A stretch of DNA of 64,000 nucleotides from contig JBMFVE010000001.1 of assembly GCA_049966155.1 (NCBI GenBank), forward strand, positions 223,831 through 287,830, in the 5' to 3' direction. Both the position numbers and the translations under genes were made by a program. This DNA is from Candidatus Kryptoniota bacterium (GTDB lineage: Bacteria; Bacteroidota; Ignavibacteria; Kryptoniales; JAKASW01). The notes under the pieces were generated by a model, which saw nothing but the letters and a program-made list of their open reading frames with translations, made no database searches and had not been told where the DNA came from. Positions 3,303 to 36,524 of this stretch are shown piece after piece (position 1 is the stretch's first letter; every line of letters begins with the position of its first letter).

Positions 3303-3729
3303 CCTTTAAATAACGCACCAGCCTGACTTCGTTTACAGCTTCTTTCTCCCGGTATTCAACGCTATCCATCAATTTTTTCATGAGATAAATCCCAAGCCCC
3401 CCGCGTTTGTGGATCCTCGCATATTCACGAACGTTGGGAACTGGAACTGAAGCCGGGTCAAAACTCAAGCCCCAATCGCGGACAATGATTGAGAACTCAG
3501 ATTTGTGTGCACGAATGATCACTTCAAATTGAGCTTCCTTTTTTCCCTTATACGCATGCTTGATCACATTGGTGCAGGCTTCATCTACAGCCAGCGATAT
3601 TTCTGATGCCTCCTTTTCACCAAACCCAAATTTCCTGGCATTTCCAGTTACAAAGGCACGGACTTCCGACAAAGAGTCAGTACTGCTTTTAAATATCTTT
3701 TTTTCTTCTATTTTTTCGAGACGATTCAT
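3286..3729 (-). CDS. Anti-sigma-factor-type serine protein kinase (RsbW/SpoIIAB-like, HATPase_c)
   Basis: 147 aa with N-box EACTNVIKHAY and G-box GGLGIYLMKKLMD. Its 3' end overlaps the downstream phosphatase start by 17 nt. Confidence 0.85.
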   Translation of the reverse strand: MNRLEKIEEKKIFKSSTDSLSEVRAFVTGNARKFGFGEKEASEISLAVDEACTNVIKHAYKGKKEAQFEVIIRAHKSEFSIIVRDWGLSFDPASVPVPNVREYARIHKRGGLGIYLMKKLMDSVEYREKEAVNEVRLVRYLKDEPEG

Positions 3730-9980: not shown

Positions 9981-10227
9981 TTTCAATCCAATAGTTTTAT
10001 TTCATTTCTTTCATTAACAATAATCAACACATCCGGGTTTCGCATTTTAAATCAACTCCTTTTCAAAAAGTCTCAAGTAAATTTAGCGATAGACCTCCGT
10101 TATGTCAAAGGTGGATCTTTTCCCTTTGTCCATGTGCTCCAGTCGTAATTTCGGAATCTTTACGAGAAAATCAAGGCAAAAATACGGGGGAGGAAAAAAT
10201 TGCCGATACTACCTTTTTCCAGAATGT

Positions 10228-10300
10228 AGCGGAGGAGGGACTCGAACCCCCGACACGTGGATTATGATTCCACTGCTCTAACCAGCTGAGCTACTCCGCC
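10228..10300 (-). tRNA. tRNA with CAU anticodon (Met, or Ile2 if lysidine-modified)
   Basis: The reverse complement folds as a cloverleaf: GGCGGAG-TA-GCTC-AGCTGGTTA-GAGC-A-GTGGA-ATCATAA-TCCAC-GTGTC-GGGGG-TTCGAGT-CCCTC-CTCCGCT-A. It has a T-loop TTCGAGT, and the 3' CCA is not encoded. Met and Ile2 identity cannot be separated by eye. Confidence 0.85.
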
Positions 10301-29433: not shown

Positions 29434-29647
29434 GTTAACCTCACAAATTTTTTAACAATTTGCAATCTATTGACATCCTGTCAGAAATGCAATGAAATTC
29501 ACATCATGCTGAAATTGGTCATTGGCAGGCAGACTCAACAGCAACGGTTAAAAAAATTCCACGGGTTTCTCCATAGTCACAAACCCTGTCATTTCTTGCA
29601 CAATCATACGTTTTTTTAACTTTTAACTTGATTTTTATTTGCCATAT

Positions 29648-29663
29648 CCATACATTTGTATGG
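29648..29663 (+). promoter_or_regulatory. Perfect 7-2-7 palindrome CCATACA-TT-TGTATGG, a candidate LexA operator overlapping a predicted -7 promoter element
   Basis: Read directly from the sequence, 20 nt upstream of the lexA ATG. It contains TACATTTG (29651-29658), which matches the Bacteroidetes-type -7 consensus TAnnTTTG. A TTG lies at 29628-29630, 20 nt upstream. An AGGAG Shine-Dalgarno sits at 29671-29675. Confidence 0.45.
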
Positions 29664-29682
29664 TATTGATAGGAGAAATAAA

Positions 29683-30297
29683 ATGGCAGAGGTTACAAAA
29701 CGACAGCAAGAAATAATCAGTTTCATCAAGGAATTTACATATAGAAAAGGATATGCCCCGACTTTAAGGGAGATTGCCGATGCATTCCATGTGTCGGTTG
29801 GATCGGTTCAAGATGTAATAAATGCTCTGCTGAAAAAGAATTTAATTCAAAAAGACAAAAGGCTTTCAAGAGCAATTAGACTTGTTGAGAAAGATAATCG
29901 CATACCCCTTTACGCATCAGCGCGGGGCGGCACTCCACGAATTGTTGACGAAGAGCCCAGGGAGTATCTTGACCCTGAAACAATGCTTGGAATTAAACCG
30001 GGCGATAAAGCATTGCAAATAGTTGGTGACAGCATGATAGGAGCCGGCATAACCGACGGATCAATCGTCTTATTTAGACCTACAAAAGATGTACGTGATG
30101 GCGACATTGTGGTTACACGCATAGAAGATGGCGTTACCGTGAAGACGCTTGCACACCACGGAAAAAATATTTTACTCAAAGCTGAAAATTCCAACTACAA
30201 ACCCATAATACTCGAACCATCAGTAGACAACTTCGAAATTCTCGGGAAAGTGATATGTGTCATAAATCGATTTACTAAATTTAAAAAGCTAAAGTGA
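29683..30297 (+). CDS. lexA: LexA-family transcriptional repressor (wHTH + S24 autopeptidase)
   Basis: 204 aa from the ATG at 29683 (the track start at 29656 is TTG). The N-terminal LexA DNA-binding domain reads RQQEIISFIKEFTYRKGYAPTLREIADAFHVSVGSVQDVINALLKKNLI. The S24 domain has GDSM (Ser117) and VTVKTL (Lys154), spaced as in E. coli Ser119/Lys156. Confidence 0.85.
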   Translation: MAEVTKRQQEIISFIKEFTYRKGYAPTLREIADAFHVSVGSVQDVINALLKKNLIQKDKRLSRAIRLVEKDNRIPLYASARGGTPRIVDEEPREYLDPETMLGIKPGDKALQIVGDSMIGAGITDGSIVLFRPTKDVRDGDIVVTRIEDGVTVKTLAHHGKNILLKAENSNYKPIILEPSVDNFEILGKVICVINRFTKFKKLK

Positions 30298-30303
30298 CAG
30301 CGC

Positions 30304-31260
30304 ATGACACAGAGAAAACATATTACACCGTATTACGTAAAGGTTGGCACTGCCGGCTGGAATTATGATGATTGGGTTGGTGTGTTTTATCCGGAGAGTA
30401 ACAGGAAAAATTTCTCAAAACTAAAATTTTATTCGGAATTTTTTGACTGTGTAGAAGTTAACAGCACATACTACCGGCACTTACCTTATAAAATTGCAGA
30501 AAAATGGCTTAATGAGGTTGCCGGCAATCAAGAATTCGAATTTATTATAAAGCTTTTTAAAAATTTTACTCATGGTACACAGAAAACAAATTCTCAATTC
30601 TATAATGATAAAGAAGCAGTGAAAAATTTCCTGTATCCATTCATCGAAAGAAAAAAACTGGCGGGAATGTTAATACAATTTTCAGAATTCTTCTTGGCTA
30701 CCGATAAATCAAAATCGTACCTATCATTTCTTATGGAAGAATTTTCCGATGTCAGGACTTTCCTCGAACTGCGACATAATTCATGGTATAGGGATGATAA
30801 TATGGAATTTCTGAAAAGTCTTAACACAAATGTAGTAACTGTTGATCAACCTGCTTTAAAAAATATGGTTGGTTTTACAACGGAAGCTGCCGGCAAAGTG
30901 GGATATTTCCGCCTGCACGGCAGAAACTATGACAGGTGGATGGAGAGCCGAAAAGCACTTACAAATGGGATAACAATCGATGACTCACAGCGGAATGAGC
31001 GCTACAATTACCTTTACAGTAGTGAGGAAATTGACGAGATTGAAAAGAGGATACGCGCTATTAAGGAAAAATGCCAAGGCATATATGTGGTGCTAAATAA
31101 CCATCCTCTTGGTAAAGCAGCCGCAAATGCACTTGAACTATTAAAGCGCTTAAAGAACAGGGAAAAAATTAAAGTACCGTCGACAATTTTACGGTTTTTC
31201 CCAGAATTAAGAAAATTTGCCGACGAGGTTAATGTGAATCAAGATGACAGCCTGTTTTGA
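30304..31260 (+). CDS. DUF72 (YecE/UPF0759) family TIM-barrel protein
   Basis: 318 aa with the typical DUF72 N-terminus (VGTAGWNYDDWVGVFYPE...FDCVEVNSTYY). Starts 6 nt after the lexA stop. The C-terminus ends ...NQDDSLF. Confidence 0.85.
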   Translation: MTQRKHITPYYVKVGTAGWNYDDWVGVFYPESNRKNFSKLKFYSEFFDCVEVNSTYYRHLPYKIAEKWLNEVAGNQEFEFIIKLFKNFTHGTQKTNSQFYNDKEAVKNFLYPFIERKKLAGMLIQFSEFFLATDKSKSYLSFLMEEFSDVRTFLELRHNSWYRDDNMEFLKSLNTNVVTVDQPALKNMVGFTTEAAGKVGYFRLHGRNYDRWMESRKALTNGITIDDSQRNERYNYLYSSEEIDEIEKRIRAIKEKCQGIYVVLNNHPLGKAAANALELLKRLKNREKIKVPSTILRFFPELRKFADEVNVNQDDSLF

Positions 31261-31891
31261 TATAAACTGTAATGTGGCATTCCGCCAAACACTGCACACA
31301 GATGATCTGCCATCCACTGTAGATTCCATATTAAATTCGGTTGGTAATCGATTGCCGGGCAAAACATACCTTCTAACAGGAAGCCGTAACGTTTATAAAA
31401 TGTCATTGGTAATCATGTACCAGCTCTTAAAGCGCAATATGTGTGTTGTACTTGTTGATGGCGCAAATCGTTTTGAATTATATTCGTTGACCCGGCAGGC
31501 TGAAACGGATAATATTGAACCTTATCAAATCTTACAAAAAGTTTTTATTTCGCGTGTTTTTACTGCTTACCAAATGGATGGCTTGATAACAGGTGGCGTG
31601 CAACCATTTATGAAACAAATAAACTCACACGCGTTGTTCATTTTTGGTCCTCTTCATACGTTTTATGATGACCATGTACCACTCAAGGACTCTATTCAAA
31701 GTCTTGATCGGATAAGACTCACACTTGATTTCATGAAGGAAGAAGGCGTGTCAATTGTTATTGCCTCAGAATTTCTCGTCCCTTCAAAGAAGGATAAAAC
31801 AATTCTCTTCAAGAAAATGACTTACATGTCTAATGAGATATATAAACTCGATGATGAATCGTTAAAACTAATTCCTGTTAGGAGGGTGTGA
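31244..31891 (+). CDS. RecA/KaiC-fold protein with degenerate Walker A/B motifs (ImuA-like in logic, family unassigned)
   Basis: 215 aa. STVDSILNSVGNRLPGKTYLLTGSRNVYKMSLV follows the RecA/RadA/KaiC pattern (TGxxxLDxxLGGGLxxGxxxLIxGxxGxGKT). The P-loop reads GSRNVYKM and the Walker B strand reads ALFIFGPL, with no acidic residue. It overlaps the DUF72 3' end by 17 nt; a GTG at 31274 is an alternative start. Confidence 0.55.
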   Translation: MTACFDINCNVAFRQTLHTDDLPSTVDSILNSVGNRLPGKTYLLTGSRNVYKMSLVIMYQLLKRNMCVVLVDGANRFELYSLTRQAETDNIEPYQILQKVFISRVFTAYQMDGLITGGVQPFMKQINSHALFIFGPLHTFYDDHVPLKDSIQSLDRIRLTLDFMKEEGVSIVIASEFLVPSKKDKTILFKKMTYMSNEIYKLDDESLKLIPVRRV

Positions 31892-31893
31892 TA

Positions 31894-32187
31894 ATGGGAC
31901 GTACAGTGCCGACTTTTACAATGGTTATACAAGAGCATCAATTAAGATGGAAAAAATTTAGGGAAGCTCTAAGGAAAGAGGATCAGGAAATATTTGATGA
32001 TCTTTTCCGAGCTCCTAAAATCCATTTAGCTGCATGTGCTTACGCTGCTAATCCAGTACCGTTTGAAAACATAGTTATGTCAATGCTAATTGAAGAACAT
32101 AAACATATAATTCAACTTGAAAAGACACTCTCAAAACTCATGCTTCAACTTCAAACGCTGGAAGAGAGCCATAAAGAAATAATATGA
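31894..32187 (+). CDS. Hypothetical 97-aa protein, predicted mostly helical, no recognisable family
   Basis: An AGGAGG lies 8 nt upstream of the ATG at 31894 (the track start at 31888 is GTG). The stop overlaps the polB ATG (ATGA). The C-terminal third (IIQLEKTLSKLMLQLQTLEESHKEII) looks coiled-coil-like. Confidence 0.6.
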   Translation: MGRTVPTFTMVIQEHQLRWKKFREALRKEDQEIFDDLFRAPKIHLAACAYAANPVPFENIVMSMLIEEHKHIIQLEKTLSKLMLQLQTLEESHKEII

Positions 32188-34439
32188 AAGGATGGTTATT
32201 TGACATTTATGCTTCTCCCAATGGGATGACACTCTGGTTTATCTCTGAAACGGGAAAACGTGTCTCAGCACACGCACCTTTTATCCCCAAATTTTACATC
32301 CATATAGATGAAAACAAAATTGGTCTGATAACAAAAATAGCATCCCGTCTTGGACAGTGTTGTGAAATCTCAAAATGGAAAGAAATGGTCGAAATATACA
32401 GCGGCCAGTGCATTAAAGTTCTCGAAATCCTCGTTAAGGACACAATGAATTTTAGTAAATGCGTTAAGGCTTTTGAAGCTGAGCTTCCTTACTATGTGTT
32501 TTTTAATACCGATCTTTCTCCTGTTCAAATGTTTCTGTTTGAAAAAGATCTGTTTCCGCTTGCCTATGGGGAATATACAATTTCCGGTGACGGAAAGGTT
32601 GTTGAACAAAATACACAAGATAGTCCCGATGCTCTTGATTATAAACTCCCGCCGTTGTCAATTATGTATTTGAAACCATCTATACTTGAGATAGCACCGA
32701 AATATCAGCAAAATATAACACTTGAAGTTGAATATGATGACAAAAACTACATTATTGAAGCAGAAGATGCACAGGAACTGCTCACAAGACTAAATTTTCA
32801 TATTGAACGCTGTGACCCCGATTTGATCATAAGCCATTATGGAGATAGCTCTATCTTTCCCTGGCTGGTATCACTGTCAAGTAAGTTTAAGGTACCACTT
32901 AAACTAAACCGCGATCCGACTGCACCATTTGCACGCAAACATGACGTTAGTTACTGGAGCTACGGACAGATAATTTATAAGGCGGGGTCCTTTGAACTTG
33001 CCGGAAGGTGGCACCTCGACGTGGAAAACTCCTTCATAATAGACCAGTCCGATTTGCCCGGACTTTTTGAGCTTGCAAGATTAACCAGGATCCCTATCCA
33101 GAGACAGGCACGGGAAACAATTGGAACTGGATTGTCATCGTTGCAGCTGGCCTGGGCTTACAAACATAACATCCTTATACCCTCTAAGAAACAGGAGTGG
33201 GAACAGTTCAAATCAGGATATCAGCTCCTTCTTTCCGATCGAGGTGGACTAATCTTTCTTCCAAAAATTGGCTATCATGAAAATGTTGCTGAACTCGATT
33301 TTGCCTCAATGTATCCAACCCTTATGTGCATTCACAACATCTCGCCCGAAACTGTAAATTGCCAGTGTTGTAGCAACCAAAAAGTACCTGAGCTGGGATA
33401 TACCTTATGTGAAAATAGAAAGGGGATTGTACCTGAAACACTGGAAGCTGTTCTGAGCAAAAGGACTGCATACAAAAAGCGCGAGAAGGAAGCAAAAACC
33501 AATAAAGAGAAAAGCGAATATCATCAAAGACAAATAGCCCTTAAGTGGCTGCTTGTAACATGTTTCGGATACCTTGGATATAAAAATGCTCGATTTGGAA
33601 GAATAGAGGCTCATGAATCTGTCAACGCCTTTTCCAGAGATGCGCTTTTAAAGGCTAAGGCAATTGCTGAGGAGCGGGGATTTGAAATTGTTCACGGAAT
33701 AGTGGATTGCTTATGGTTAAAAAAGGATGGTGCCAGCGCTGATGATTACATCAAATTGAGTGATGAAATATCAAAGGAAACAGGTGTAAGCATAAGTTTT
33801 GACGGAATATATAAATGGATACTTTTTCCAAACTCGAGAACCGATCCGGAAATTCCCACCTCTAATAGGTATGTGGGAGTATATACAAACAATGAGTTGA
33901 AAGTGCGAGGGCTGGAAGTACGCCGTGGCGATGCCCCACTTTTCGTAAAAAAAGTACAAGCAGATGTACTTAAACTTATGACAACCGCCTCTGGAATAGA
34001 AGAGCTAAAGCATATGGCATCTGAGATTATCCAGGTAATGAAGATACATCTTGAAAGACTTGCAACTGGTCGCGTTGATCCTCTTGAATTAGTTATTAAA
34101 CGTACAATTTCAAAAGAAGCAGATGAGTACATGAATCAAAGCATGCAGGCAATTGTCGCAAAGACAATGGCAGAAGAAGGTGTTGCATTAATGCCTGGAG
34201 AGACAGCTGAATTTATAATCATAGACAGTACGGGTAAAAAATACCCACAAAAAGTTAAACCTTTTTTGTTTTACAAACCCGAAGATGGATATGACATTGA
34301 CAAATATACAGAGCTTACCATCAAGTCAATAGAGATCCTGCTAAATCCTCTTGGATACGATTACGACTGGATTGCAGAACAGCTAATTACCAACATATTT
34401 ACCAATCCATCCCAGCACGGTATCGTACCACAACTTTGA
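32184..34439 (+). CDS. polB: Family-B DNA polymerase, archaeal/Pol II-like, with degenerate exonuclease motifs
   Basis: 751 aa and collinear by eye with archaeal PolB. DPDLIISHYGDSSIFPWL corresponds to DPDIIxxYNGDxFDxPYL. Motif A is LDFASMYPTL, motif B is KWLLVTCFGYLGY, motif C is HGIVDC, and the distal region reads NRY...VRGLEVRRGD. See the findings for the motif losses. Confidence 0.9.
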   Translation: MKGWLFDIYASPNGMTLWFISETGKRVSAHAPFIPKFYIHIDENKIGLITKIASRLGQCCEISKWKEMVEIYSGQCIKVLEILVKDTMNFSKCVKAFEAELPYYVFFNTDLSPVQMFLFEKDLFPLAYGEYTISGDGKVVEQNTQDSPDALDYKLPPLSIMYLKPSILEIAPKYQQNITLEVEYDDKNYIIEAEDAQELLTRLNFHIERCDPDLIISHYGDSSIFPWLVSLSSKFKVPLKLNRDPTAPFARKHDVSYWSYGQIIYKAGSFELAGRWHLDVENSFIIDQSDLPGLFELARLTRIPIQRQARETIGTGLSSLQLAWAYKHNILIPSKKQEWEQFKSGYQLLLSDRGGLIFLPKIGYHENVAELDFASMYPTLMCIHNISPETVNCQCCSNQKVPELGYTLCENRKGIVPETLEAVLSKRTAYKKREKEAKTNKEKSEYHQRQIALKWLLVTCFGYLGYKNARFGRIEAHESVNAFSRDALLKAKAIAEERGFEIVHGIVDCLWLKKDGASADDYIKLSDEISKETGVSISFDGIYKWILFPNSRTDPEIPTSNRYVGVYTNNELKVRGLEVRRGDAPLFVKKVQADVLKLMTTASGIEELKHMASEIIQVMKIHLERLATGRVDPLELVIKRTISKEADEYMNQSMQAIVAKTMAEEGVALMPGETAEFIIIDSTGKKYPQKVKPFLFYKPEDGYDIDKYTELTIKSIEILLNPLGYDYDWIAEQLITNIFTNPSQHGIVPQL

Positions 34440-36524
34440 ATCCAGCGGTTTTGTCACAAAATGATATTCATTTGGGAAATATAGCATCTCTGAGGGAACA
34501 CCTTGCATTTGAAGTGCAGTGAAGAGCTGAAATCCTTGACTGACATCGAGGCGAAAATCGTTTTGACTGTGAATTACGAGCATTGGCGTTTTGAAGTTCC
34601 TCACGTACGTGCTGGGGGACCATCTTTTGTACATCTCGGGATTTGACCACGGGGTTCCTTTGAATTCCCACAACGGAAACCAGAGTTCTTCGGTGGAACC
34701 GAATGCACTTGCCGCATCAAATAAGCCATCATGGCTCACGAAGCATTTAAAAATCCCGCTGTCATTGTGCCCCTCCATCCAGTTAATCATGTAACCACCA
34801 TACGACGCACCTGCAGCTGCAATCTTGTTTTTATCGATAAAGGAATAATGGCTGATGACATAATTGACCCCTTTCATGAGGTCAGCATAAACCTTGCCGC
34901 CCCAGTCTCCACTTATCTCATTTGTAAATTTCTGCCCGTAACCGGTTGAACCTCGTGGGTTTATCATGACTGCAACATATCCGGGCGCAGCAAAGAGTTC
35001 AGCATTCCATCTGTAGTGAAATTCGTCCATCCATTGCCCCTGAGGTCCTCCATGAATCAGCAAGATCATGGGGTACTTGCTCCCTGGCTCAAAATGCGGT
35101 GGTTTAACTATAAATCCCTCAACTTTTGTCCCCCCTGCGCCGGTAAACCAAAATGGTTCCCAGGGATTCATTTCAAGCTGTGTAAGAAGCGAATCGTTTG
35201 CATGCGTAAGCTGTGTAATTTCATGTGTCTGCAAGTTCATTTTGTAAATATCATTCGGATGAGTTACCGACTGGCGAAGAAAAACGAGATACTTGCCATC
35301 AGAGGTAATCCTAAGTTCAGTGATTGTGGAATTGTCTGTTATCTTCTGAATTTTACCAGTTGATACATCAACTTCAAAAATATCGTGATATCCCTTATCG
35401 TCGGAATCAAAATAGAGCTTCCTGCCGTCTGGCGACCATACCACTTCATCGACTGATCGATCGAATTTTTCCGTCAAATCAATGGTTTTTCTCTTTCCTT
35501 TCACTCCATTTGGAGCCCTTCTGTCGTACAACATTAACCTTTCTCTATCAGATTCAAAACCTGGGGTCAATTGTGCTCTATAGGCAATATAACGGCCATC
35601 AGGGGAATAAATAGGCTGATTGTCATTTCCCTTGTTGGTAGTAATGCGCCTGGATACACCACCATTTAAGCTTACAGTGAACAAATCATTATTGGTACTA
35701 ACGGCTATCATTTTATCGGTATTTTTTACATAGCATACCTCTTTGCTATCAGGGGAAAAGGAATAATCGATTCGGCCTCCAAGGTCAATTGGAGGAGTGT
35801 CGTAATCTCCAGGCGTCAAATCTCTCGTAGTACCGCTGTCGACGCTAACTACAAACAAATGGCTTCGCTTGCCATCTTTCCAGTAATTCCAGACTCGATA
35901 CGGAAGTGTCGTAAATATTTTTGCCCTGACCTTCCCGTTTTCAAGTTCTTTTTCACGTACCGCGTTTGCAGAATCAGTTTTGCAATCTGGAAAGACGCTG
36001 GAAGCAAACGCAATATATTTGCCATCTGGCGACCACAATAGTCCGCTCACACCAAGCACAGTGCTTGTGATTTTTCTCGGATTTCCTCCGTTCACTCTCT
36101 CAACGTATATTTGCTGCACACCATCCGTGTCATCAGCTACAAAAGCCATTTCCCTGCCGTCAGGCGACCATGAAGGTTCACTAACTGATTTCAGTCCGGT
36201 CTCAAATTTTCTCGGAGTACCTCCATTTATAGAAACAAAAAAGATTCTGCTCGTTCCACTATTAGTATTCATATTGTAAGTGGTAACAACGTATGCAATC
36301 GTTTTTCCGTCAGGTGATACCTGTGGATTGGAGACTCTCGCAACCTTCCACATGTCTTCAACTGTAATGGGGTGTCTCTCCTCTATTTTAATTGAACGAT
36401 TATCAATTTGCGCATAAGCAATGATTGGGATTAAAAATAAACTCAAAGTTAAGAGATTGATCAACCTTTGCACAACAGCTCCTTTTTTTGAAGGGTTAAC
36501 TAATGAAAGAATTAAAGGCCTCAT
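34383..36524 (-). CDS. S9-family serine peptidase (prolyl oligopeptidase/dipeptidyl peptidase type) with an N-terminal beta-propeller
   Basis: 713 aa with a signal-like N-terminus, repeated SPDG[KR] PD40/TolB-like blades and a C-terminal alpha/beta hydrolase with the nucleophile elbow GASYGGYM. The 3' end overlaps the polB 3' end by 57 nt. Confidence 0.85.
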   Translation of the reverse strand: MRPLILSLVNPSKKGAVVQRLINLLTLSLFLIPIIAYAQIDNRSIKIEERHPITVEDMWKVARVSNPQVSPDGKTIAYVVTTYNMNTNSGTSRIFFVSINGGTPRKFETGLKSVSEPSWSPDGREMAFVADDTDGVQQIYVERVNGGNPRKITSTVLGVSGLLWSPDGKYIAFASSVFPDCKTDSANAVREKELENGKVRAKIFTTLPYRVWNYWKDGKRSHLFVVSVDSGTTRDLTPGDYDTPPIDLGGRIDYSFSPDSKEVCYVKNTDKMIAVSTNNDLFTVSLNGGVSRRITTNKGNDNQPIYSPDGRYIAYRAQLTPGFESDRERLMLYDRRAPNGVKGKRKTIDLTEKFDRSVDEVVWSPDGRKLYFDSDDKGYHDIFEVDVSTGKIQKITDNSTITELRITSDGKYLVFLRQSVTHPNDIYKMNLQTHEITQLTHANDSLLTQLEMNPWEPFWFTGAGGTKVEGFIVKPPHFEPGSKYPMILLIHGGPQGQWMDEFHYRWNAELFAAPGYVAVMINPRGSTGYGQKFTNEISGDWGGKVYADLMKGVNYVISHYSFIDKNKIAAAGASYGGYMINWMEGHNDSGIFKCFVSHDGLFDAASAFGSTEELWFPLWEFKGTPWSNPEMYKRWSPSTYVRNFKTPMLVIHSQNDFRLDVSQGFQLFTALQMQGVPSEMLYFPNEYHFVTKPLDSKLWYDTVLGWIGKYVGN

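Follow-up and report, generated by a model that had tools for sequence, protein, structure and literature searches.

We analysed a stretch of 64,000 nt from a Candidatus Kryptoniota bacterium (GCA_049966155.1, contig JBMFVE010000001.1, positions 223,831-287,830 of the forward strand), hereafter the window, and in particular the open reading frame (ORF) located at 32184-34439 on the plus strand, which encodes a protein of 751 amino acids (aa). This ORF very probably encodes the catalytic subunit of a bacterial PolB2 mutasome, PolB2 being the G2 group of the bacterial B-family DNA polymerases, and is the last gene of a lexA-DUF72-iRadA-PPB2-polB2 operon. A preliminary description of this DNA, based on the reading of motifs by eye, had reported the ORF with the same boundaries and had assigned it to an archaeal-type B-family polymerase (PolB) devoid of proofreading, possibly still endowed with polymerase chemistry and acting as a translesion or mutagenic enzyme. 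This assignment agrees with the published view of PolB2 and with the sequence and context features reported below, which shows that motifs read carefully by eye can be enough to arrive at the correct functional class; the PolB2 family identity and the LexA-headed operon had not been recognised. The product is 100% identical to a protein from a Candidatus Kryptoniota metagenome-assembled genome (MAG), whose annotation goes no further than "DNA polymerase domain-containing protein".

PolB2 has been linked to an inactivated RadA and to the small protein arCOG07300 and, in bacteria, also to lexA, as in the Leptospirillum ferriphilum genes LFML04_0990-0993 (Makarova 2014, PMC4104785). The two partners were later renamed iRadA and PPB2, the order iRadA-PPB2-PolB2 was reported as the only one occurring in bacteria, and lexA and DUF72 genes were found to be enriched near bacterial polB2 (Timinskas 2025, PMC11791011). 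A 2026 survey treats G2/PolB2 as a standard group of bacterial B-family polymerases, with an exonuclease domain that is inactive in all members (PMC12926913). The window shows precisely this organisation, with iRadA at 31244-31891, PPB2 at 31894-32187 and polB2 at 32184-34439, all on the plus strand and overlapping or abutting, preceded on the same strand by lexA and then a DUF72 gene. The LexA-headed operon adds independent support for a role in the response to DNA damage.

Polymerase family and catalytic motifs

The polB2 ORF is uninterrupted and its product matched the Pfam DNA_pol_B profile with an E value of 8.7e-39 over aa 320-720. A phmmer search against all PDB sequences returned the Thermococcales PolBs as best matches, at about 1e-50, and the AlphaFold2 model of the protein (predicted local distance difference test, pLDDT, 93.9; predicted template modelling score, pTM, 0.91) superimposed on the KOD and 9N PolB-DNA complexes with a template modelling (TM) score of 0.75. 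Among the NCBIfam models, the two PRK05761 ("type B") models gave the best scores, of 400 and 359 bits, while the PolB1-type models scored 105-190 bits with both the window protein and a Thaumarchaeota PolB2 and the Pol II models scored 28-71 bits with the window protein, against cutoffs of 570-1435. The Thaumarchaeota polymerase, which is itself linked to the operon partners (locus L002, JAPCJH010000001.1), returned an identical ranking of the models, with PRK05761 at about 350-400 bits; for neither protein did any model attain its narrow curated cutoff. A similarity ranking, which does not amount to a rooted tree, gave 37% identity between the window protein and this Thaumarchaeota PolB2 over residues 1-724, versus about 21% with the Thermococcales PolB3-type structures.

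To evaluate the conservation of the active site, 1.84 billion cluster representatives were searched exhaustively, which retrieved 880 relatives at E < 1e-30; family columns were then derived from 110 diverse full-length representatives, mostly 30-50% identical to the window protein. Motif A, LDFASMYPTL (33294-33323, plus strand, aa 371-380), is intact exactly where the preliminary description had placed it, and its catalytic Asp372 occurs in all 110 sequences. Motif B reads KWLLVTCFG (33543-33569, plus strand, aa 454-462) in place of the archaeal KILANSYYG; Lys454 is retained while Asn and Tyr are replaced by Val458 and Phe461. These replacements had been correctly described, with an end coordinate (33581) that lies 12 nt too late. 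The variant is shared by the family, with the consensus K-W-x-L-V-[TV]-[CS]-F-G and K454, W455, V458 and F461 present in 109, 102, 105 and 109 of the 110 sequences respectively.

Motif C reads HGIVDC (33693-33710, plus strand, aa 504-509) as opposed to the archaeal YIDTDG, and matches the PolB2 signature HxxxD. The first Asp is replaced by Ile506 and the second, Asp508, is retained, as previously described except for an end (33713) set 3 nt too far downstream. In the family, whose consensus is H-[GA]-[IL]-[VT]-D-[SC], H504 was found in 102 and D508 in all 110 sequences, and none carries an Asp in column 506. The surviving second Asp had been proposed to act as the metal ligand, in agreement with the published account of motif C and of the HxxxD signature (PMC8764526). 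The occurrence of Asp372 and Asp508 in every representative and of Lys454 in 109 of them indicates that the catalytic carboxylates and the lysine binding the deoxynucleoside triphosphate (dNTP) are strictly constrained.

The KxY motif is also modified, the Pab sequence TKKKY being aligned with TSNRY and the motif itself reading N561-R562-Y563 (33864-33872, plus strand); the family consensus is N-R-Y, with N561 in 82, R562 in 95 and Y563 in 89 of the 110 representatives. In RB69- and phi29-type enzymes the motif B Asn, the Tyr hydroxyl group and the KxY Lys contact the nascent or terminal base pair. The replacement of all three throughout the family would fit a tolerance of distorted primer termini.

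A further conserved segment precedes motif A. At 33201-33248 on the plus strand the protein shows an FxxA-like beta-alpha element followed by a D(K/R)GG motif (E340-x-F342-K-S-G345...L348-L...D352-R353-G-G), and in the model strands 330-333 and helix 345-351 lie ahead of D352-R353-G-G. The corresponding columns contain E340 in 105 sequences, F342 in 61, K343 in 97, A345 in 70 (Gly in 18), D352 in 110, K or R353 in 102 and G354 in 110. In the published models the PPB2 MGRT arm contacts the D(K/R) motif of PolB2, and the beta-alpha segment ahead of it binds iRadA as Rad51 oligomerisation motifs do, within a PolB2:iRadA:PPB2 complex of 1:1:3 stoichiometry (PMC11791011). By analogy, this whole segment is predicted to be the iRadA- and PPB2-binding region of the window protein. 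The alignment columns show that the altered motifs (HxxxD, KWxLVxxFG, NRY and the invariant D(K/R)GG) are signatures of the PolB2 group and not private mutations of this protein.

The supplement to the 2025 study includes operons from Bacteroidota and Ignavibacteriota; among its listed entries one Bacteroidota protein carries the identical HGIVDCLWL and ALKW.LV.CFGYLGY sequences, and the string "Kryptoni" was not found among those entries (PMC11791011).

Some PolB2 homologues of about 1250 aa (P0222, P0238, P0244, P0255, P0263, P0268, P0269 and P0342) are split by an insert of about 500 aa at the position equivalent to window residue ~461, within motif B. The insert of P0222 matched the Intein_splicing and LAGLIDADG_3 profiles and hence is an intein, placed within a catalytic motif of a polymerase that is supposed to be "inactivated".

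Decay of the exonuclease domain

Alignment to the DNA_pol_B and DNA_pol_B_exo1 profiles had been proposed in the preliminary description as a check of the loss of proofreading. The former matched as reported above, and no Pfam match to the latter was found in the window protein even at E <= 1. In order to locate the exonuclease motifs, a Pfu polymerase segment verified at 100% against residues 119-423 of PDB 3a2f_A was taken as reference, and its portions were slid along a position-specific scoring matrix (PSSM) built from the 110 family members.

The clearest result was obtained for Exo II (z = 6.8), which corresponds to the degenerate sequence HYGDSSIFPWL (32835-32867, plus strand, aa 218-228) as compared with the archaeal YNGDNFxFPYL. 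Pfu residues Y209, N210, F214 and D215 fall on His218, Tyr219, Ser223 and Ile224, so that both the Asn and the Asp are lost, as had been noticed by eye, with a start (32829) placed 6 nt too early. The family columns retain G220, D221, P226 and L228; the catalytic positions, in contrast, hold variable or hydrophobic residues.

As for Exo III, the Pfu segment VEVKGRIHFDLYH (250-262) mapped uniquely to window residues 270-282 (z = 4.6) and FLPMEIQLSRLVGQPL (326-341) to residues 290-305 (z = 3.9), with FLPMEIQLSRL (326-336) on residues 290-300. Pfu 260-325, including the Exo III residues Y311 and D315, is therefore replaced in the window protein by the ten residues 280-289, showing that the segment bearing Exo III is missing with a loss of about 55 aa. 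The absence of this segment had been foreseen; its size had been underestimated at roughly 40 aa, and the breakpoint lies just upstream of the LPGLFELARL sequence instead of after it. The GRWHLD sequence that borders the junction (33003-33050 for the strand and the junction together, plus strand; aa 274-279, equivalent to Pfu G254-D259, and aa 280-289) is the canonical GRIHFD strand (Pfu G254-R-I-H-F-D259). A local HMMER alignment had equated GRWHLD with the Exo III sequence YSMED, an assignment that we rejected on the basis of the verified Pfu reference, of the PSSM slide and of the secondary structure of the model, which shows a strand at W276-D279 followed by a single helix at 284-301 and does not fit an Exo III helix. 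GRWHLD (33003-33020) is among the most conserved segments of the family, with G and R in 110 of 110 sequences, H277 in 106 and D279 in 104. Such a constraint on this strand despite the loss of the nuclease site suggests a structural or DNA-handling role.

The register of Exo I is less certain. The PSSM slide aligned Pfu EELKILAFDIETLY (133-146) with the strand PPLSIMYLKPSILE (32649-32690, plus strand, aa 156-169; strand 160-165 in the model), with FDIE on L163-K-P-S166 and a modest z of 2.6, whereas HMMER, run with either the single sequence or the family profile, placed Exo I at aa 139-143, with FDIE on V-E-Q-N (140-143). The assignment is thus ambiguous, the slide favouring aa 156-169 and HMMER aa 139-143. 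The peptide LSIMYLKPS, previously indicated as Exo I, does occur at aa 158-166 (32655-32681) and contains no DxE; its equivalence to Exo I shares the ambiguity of the register. Under neither register was a DxE present in the window protein, and the family columns were not conserved among the 110 sequences.

None of the DxE, NxxxFD and YxxxD acidic residues is retained in the window protein, the carboxylates of Exo I and II being replaced and Exo III deleted. The family columns show that the Exo carboxylates have been lost throughout the family. The HMMER local alignments mis-registered or skipped the decayed region (32184-33100), with Exo I shifted by one strand. Local HMM alignments can therefore mis-register a decayed exonuclease domain, and a motif-wise PSSM slide combined with predicted secondary structure provides the correction.

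The operon, its partner proteins and related loci

Neighbouring genes of the five-gene block are separated by gaps of 2-6 nt or overlap by 4-17 nt, as read from the junction sequences. The lexA gene (29683-30297, plus strand) encodes 204 aa from an ATG at 29683, preceded by the Shine-Dalgarno sequence AGGAG at 29671-29675; the mechanically called ORF extends to a TTG at 29656. The DUF72 gene (30304-31260, plus strand; 318 aa, TIM-barrel family) starts 6 nt downstream of the lexA stop codon and its 3' end overlaps by 17 nt the iRadA gene (31244-31891, plus strand; 215 aa). The PPB2 gene (31894-32187, plus strand; 97 aa, arCOG07300/Pfam DUF8156), whose product begins with MGRTVPTF, has a mechanical ORF starting 6 nt earlier at a GTG (31888), and its stop codon overlaps the polB2 start codon in the sequence ATGA. 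These junctions are consistent with co-translation.

The 215-aa iRadA protein had no Pfam match. Its family profile matched essentially only RadA, Rad51 and DMC1 cores in the PDB (best E = 2.2e-6), the best match being aligned to residues 130-271 of a full-length chain of 349 aa. Its AlphaFold2 model (pLDDT 86.5) retrieved with Foldseek, as the top 50 matches, only Rad51, RadA, DMC1 or Rad51-paralogue complexes (E about 1e-8, TM 0.6-0.66). [quoted passage not shown] The P-loop position, between strand 41-45 and helix 50-63, reads G46-S-R-N without GK[ST]. At the end of strand 130-134, which corresponds to Walker B, a nearly invariant Gly135 replaces the Asp, so that the ATPase site is, by sequence, dead. 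A candidate Walker A, GNRLPGKT (aa 34-41, 31343-31366), fits the GxxxxGK[ST] pattern; since it lies ahead of the first core strand and homologues do not conserve it (they show PGRT or LGDF), it was set aside as probably a chance match and not a P-loop. BLASTP comparison with the Thaumarchaeota operon partner gave E = 3e-8.

The family name of PPB2 was taken from the precomputed annotations of its homologues, all 74 of which carry PF26485 (DUF8156). The MGRT arm, the defining feature of PPB2 (PMC11791011), was found at or near the N-terminus in 72 of these 74 homologues, and the Thaumarchaeota partner, which also starts with MGRT, aligned with the window protein over 89 aa (BLASTP E = 2e-18).

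The product of the first gene was identified as LexA by TIGR00498 (146.5 bits, cutoff 110.95) and by matches to both Pfam LexA_DNA_bind and Peptidase_S24, and it contains the Ser (GDSM) and Lys (VTVK) dyad. Residues 81-83 are Arg-Gly-Gly, conserved in the orthologue of the related locus L001, and we take them to align with Ala83-Ala84-Gly85 of E. coli LexA, presumably placing a Gly-Gly at the position of the Ala-Gly scissile bond. Upstream of the gene, a candidate promoter/operator was located at 29628-29663 on the plus strand, in which TTGATT (29628-29633) and TACATT (29651-29656) are separated by a 17-nt spacer; the promoter match is 8/12, under the threshold of the scan. A perfect palindrome, CCATACA-TT-TGTATGG (29648-29663; 7+7 nt, 100%), overlaps this promoter-like site and lies 20 nt upstream of the lexA ATG. 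Its core ATACATTTGTAT occurs at the same place in front of the L001 lexA gene (3469-3480, within a palindrome region at 3467-3482), again with a promoter-like TTGACT-N17-TACATT, while the sequence farther upstream has diverged between the two loci. The palindrome is hence a reasonable candidate, on sequence grounds, for the LexA operator of this lineage. A single exact copy of ATACATTTGTAT is present in the window, where the only other sites have one mismatch, lie within coding regions and occur at chance-level frequency, so that no regulon can be inferred from the window.

The DUF72 protein matched its Pfam profile with E = 9.5e-45 and the PDB entries 1vpq (4.9e-31) and 1vpy/1ztv (5.6e-25). 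Members of this family, beyond their enrichment beside polB2, are structurally related to UV-damage endonuclease (UVDE) (PMC11791011).

Related loci show how far this arrangement extends. In L001, a Bacteroidota MAG whose polymerase is 78% identical to the window protein, the same arrangement was found, with lexA confirmed by alignment and followed by ORFs matching in size and order. In two FCB-group genomes (L003 and L004) the triad consists of a gene of about 225 aa without Pfam hit, a DUF8156 gene and a PolB gene; a DUF72 gene lies nearby in divergent orientation in L004 and none adjoins the triad in L003. The Thaumarchaeota locus L002 encodes, in order, a RadA-like protein, an MGRT-headed protein of 90 aa, a second small paralogue without MGRT and PolB2, the latter with the motif C HGIVDS. 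The two tandem PPB2 paralogues of L002 (5470-6019), of which only the first bears MGRT, follow the pattern described for duplicated PPB2 genes (PMC11791011).

Beta-clamp-like motifs vary among the close relatives. Many PolB2 proteins with 50-64% identity to the window protein have a basic KKKR-like linker and a tail of the Q-x-x-[LI]-F type (QELPLF, QIPLF, QQEIEF, QDLF), as seen by comparing relatives P0005-P0040 with the window C-terminus (34330-34439), while the window protein and its closest relatives P0002 and P0004 have no such tail. The last 12 residues of the window PolB2 (aa 740-751) are disordered in the model. An internal QMFLF sequence (aa 115) was dismissed as a clamp motif as it lies within the folded N-terminal domain.

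Proposed function, alternatives and genomic setting

The data suggest the following mode of action. In undamaged cells LexA would repress its own operon, probably through the palindrome overlapping the promoter. Upon DNA damage and LexA inactivation, the four downstream genes would be co-translated, as the overlaps and short gaps suggest. By reference to the AlphaFold models of homologues, PolB2 would bind one iRadA through its FxxA-like beta-alpha segment, while a trimer of PPB2, for which a three-helix fold is predicted, would insert an MGRT arm beside the D(K/R) loop. In the synthesis that follows, Asp372 and Asp508 would act as ligands of the metal ions and Lys454 would lie at the dNTP, roles assigned from B-family structures, and PolB2 is expected to exert no proofreading, given the replacement of the carboxylates of Exo I and II and the deletion of the segment bearing Exo III. 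The complex would finally extend mismatched or lesion-paired primer ends after insertion by another polymerase, thus fixing mutations, a step for which the experimental evidence comes from archaeal Dpo2.

Sulfolobus Dpo2, which carries HxxxD, is as active as the replicase Dpo1 and has no detectable 3'-5' exonuclease activity; it shows high insertion fidelity on undamaged DNA, inserts poorly opposite lesions and efficiently extends mismatched and lesion-paired termini (PMC8764526). Moreover, it is required genetically for damage-induced mutagenesis (PMC8764526; PMC11791011). On these grounds the retention of polymerase activity proposed in the preliminary description is supported by homology, whereas the "relaxed" chemistry suggested there does not quite match the fidelity measured for Dpo2, which behaves as a specific extender. 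An SOS-controlled translesion extension is, by homology, the likely function of the window locus, and it is in the same sense that we infer LexA-controlled induction, assembly of the heteropentamer and extender-type translesion synthesis in this bacterium.

Comparison with known systems places the locus among the bacterial G2/PolB2 operons, with which it shares the polymerase signatures, the iRadA-PPB2-PolB2 order and the presence of LexA and/or DUF72 directly upstream; it differs in having both lexA and DUF72 in one co-directional five-gene block. The listed Bacteroidota PolB2 of the 2025 supplement has a C-terminal QLSLF clamp motif that the window protein lacks. The Dpo2 proteins of Sulfolobus islandicus and S. 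solfataricus, damage-inducible and the sole experimentally characterised reference for PolB2, have in common with the window protein HxxxD, D(K/R), the loss of the Exo motifs and an operon that also encodes arCOG07300/PPB2 and an inactivated RadA. However, Sulfolobus Dpo2 is described as smaller than any other known PolB2, the exonuclease domain being for the most part absent (PMC8764526), whereas the 751-aa window protein has a recognisable and confidently modelled exonuclease-domain scaffold. In addition, the regulation of archaeal PolB2 has been linked to Orc1/Cdc6 homologues and not to LexA (PMC11791011), and the clamp partner is PCNA instead of the beta clamp. The Thaumarchaeota locus shares the iRadA, MGRT-PPB2 and PolB2 order and the HGIVDS motif and is distinguished by the second PPB2 and by having no lexA or DUF72.

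More distant parallels can be drawn with other damage-induced polymerases. E. coli Pol II (group G1) has the B-family fold and is an SOS-regulated translesion extender, but it is a single-subunit enzyme, distant in sequence, whose DEDDy exonuclease is active and whose motifs B and C are canonical. Pol zeta (Rev3-Rev7), Pol V (UmuD'2C-RecA) and ImuA-ImuB-DnaE2 are damage-induced, multi-subunit and proofreading-free, their catalytic subunit carrying a docked accessory one that is small or of the RecA/Rad51 family; they are analogues and not family members. Pol zeta is likewise a B-family extender, while Pol V belongs to the Y family and DnaE2 to the C family; their accessory proteins are unrelated to PPB2, and only iRadA and RecA/ImuA have the RecA/Rad51 superfamily fold in common.

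A number of observations weigh against the assignment to an SOS-controlled PolB2 mutasome. The PolB2 literature cited here mentions no bacterial member studied by biochemical or genetic experiments. The scores of the two PRK05761 models are below the curated cutoffs (400 versus 516 bits and 359 versus 692 bits). The FxxA-like segment of the window protein reads F-K-S-G, as opposed to the commoner family form F-K-[TS]-A. No QLxLF-like beta-clamp motif was found in the last 35 aa of either PolB2 or iRadA. As to regulation, the Gly-Gly at the presumed scissile position means that RecA-stimulated self-cleavage of LexA is not assured, and the candidate operator does not match the LexA motifs with which it was compared, from Bacteroidetes (GGA-N5-TCC, CTAA-N5-TTAG) and Balneolaeota (a direct repeat). 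The clamp motif is optional, being present in a fraction of the systems, in iRadA or in PolB2 (PMC11791011), and its absence therefore does not decide the membership of iRadA. Neither the clamp-less tail, nor the presence of lexA and DUF72 in the block, nor the F-K-S-G sequence removes the locus from the PolB2 family, of which it is an ordinary member: a known damage-tolerance system and not a new kind of enzyme.

Alternative explanations were considered in the light of the same data. According to the original view of 2008-2014, the protein would be a catalytically dead pseudo-polymerase, which would only bind DNA or act as a scaffold, together with iRadA and PPB2, in a complex for repair or for the regulation of replication. 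In its favour, replacements affect the first Asp of motif C, the Asn and Tyr of motif B and the Lys of KxY, the partner iRadA is itself a dead enzyme, and the family was taken as inactivated in 2014 (PMC4104785). We nevertheless regard this explanation as improbable. The invariance of D372 and D508 and the near invariance of K454 among such divergent members, within a strong constraint on the whole set of palm and fingers motifs, would be unneeded in a scaffold, the model superimposes best on PolB-DNA complexes in the polymerising state, and the activity of Dpo2, which has the same HxxxD, equals that of Dpo1 (PMC8764526). Far less credible is a diverged orthologue of E. coli Pol II, a single-subunit and SOS-induced enzyme that recently lost proofreading, as might be thought of a B-family polymerase beside lexA in a bacterium and as some automated annotations of homologues ("DNA polymerase II", "DNA polymerase-2") imply. 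The NCBIfam Pol II models scored 28-71 bits versus 400 for the PolB2-like models, the closest PDB sequences are archaeal PolBs with Pol II (3k57) far weaker, exonuclease decay and HxxxD are family-wide and common to archaeal PolB2, Pol II has no link to iRadA and PPB2, and the window protein has no C-terminal QLxLF.

It is equally hard to credit that the protein stems from an integrated casposon, pipolin, provirus or other mobile element, as its replicative or self-priming polymerase. Many bacterial B-family polymerases do originate in such elements, and the block is the only plus-strand one in a long minus-strand region, with a G+C content of 0.377-0.403 versus about 0.42. However, it is flanked by housekeeping genes (permease, asparaginase, EPSP-synthase family, BshC, S9 peptidase and GlnRS); no integrase, Cas1, capsid gene or terminal repeats were found near the five-gene block; the only tRNA gene of the window is 19 kb away; a replicative polymerase would retain proofreading; and the operon is syntenic across several FCB-group genomes. 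An unlikely but more substantial proposal concerns DUF72, which might be integral to the system as a UVDE-like nuclease nicking at damage, with the PolB2 complex filling the gap in an error-prone manner and not in association with the fork. The Kryptoniota PolB2 mutasome might then be a self-contained, clamp-independent repair module in which the nuclease, co-translated from the LexA-controlled transcript, makes or processes the substrate, a proposal we hold to be just as doubtful. The DUF72 gene does follow lexA after a gap of 6 nt and overlap iRadA by 17 nt, and no clamp motif tethering the complex to the replisome was found in the PolB2 and iRadA C-termini. On the other hand, no nuclease activity is attributed to DUF72 in PMC11791011, the DUF72 gene does not adjoin the L003 triad and is divergent in L004, and incision-resynthesis and translesion pathways are not mutually exclusive. 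If true, DUF72 would gain its first function, and SOS-controlled incision with mutagenic resynthesis would emerge as a process distinct from fork-associated translesion synthesis.

With the PolB2 mutasome as the preferred assignment, the conceptual addition is small, as the dead exonuclease, HxxxD and the associated genes (for an inactivated RadA, for a small helical protein and, in bacteria, lexA) were described in 2008-2014 and modelled in detail in 2025. The compact lexA-DUF72-iRadA-PPB2-polB2 block is a convenient unit for asking whether a bacterial PolB2 is an SOS-induced extender, and it could also reveal the formation of the heteropentamer and any nuclease step exerted by DUF72.

Finally, some features of the surrounding DNA were recorded. 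A tRNA-Met gene (CAT) at 10226-10300 on the minus strand is the sole RNA gene detected, Rfam at gathering thresholds returning no other in the whole window. Among the parts of the window covered by the listed ORFs, 29656-34439 is the only sizeable coding stretch on the plus strand, the remainder being on the minus strand, and the GC skew changes sign over the same interval. The skew flip and the lower G+C fit a strand switch, possibly with an ancient horizontal origin. At its downstream end the block meets a convergent gene of the S9 prolyl-oligopeptidase family (34383-36524, minus strand), which shares 57 nt (34383-34439) with the 3' end of polB2.

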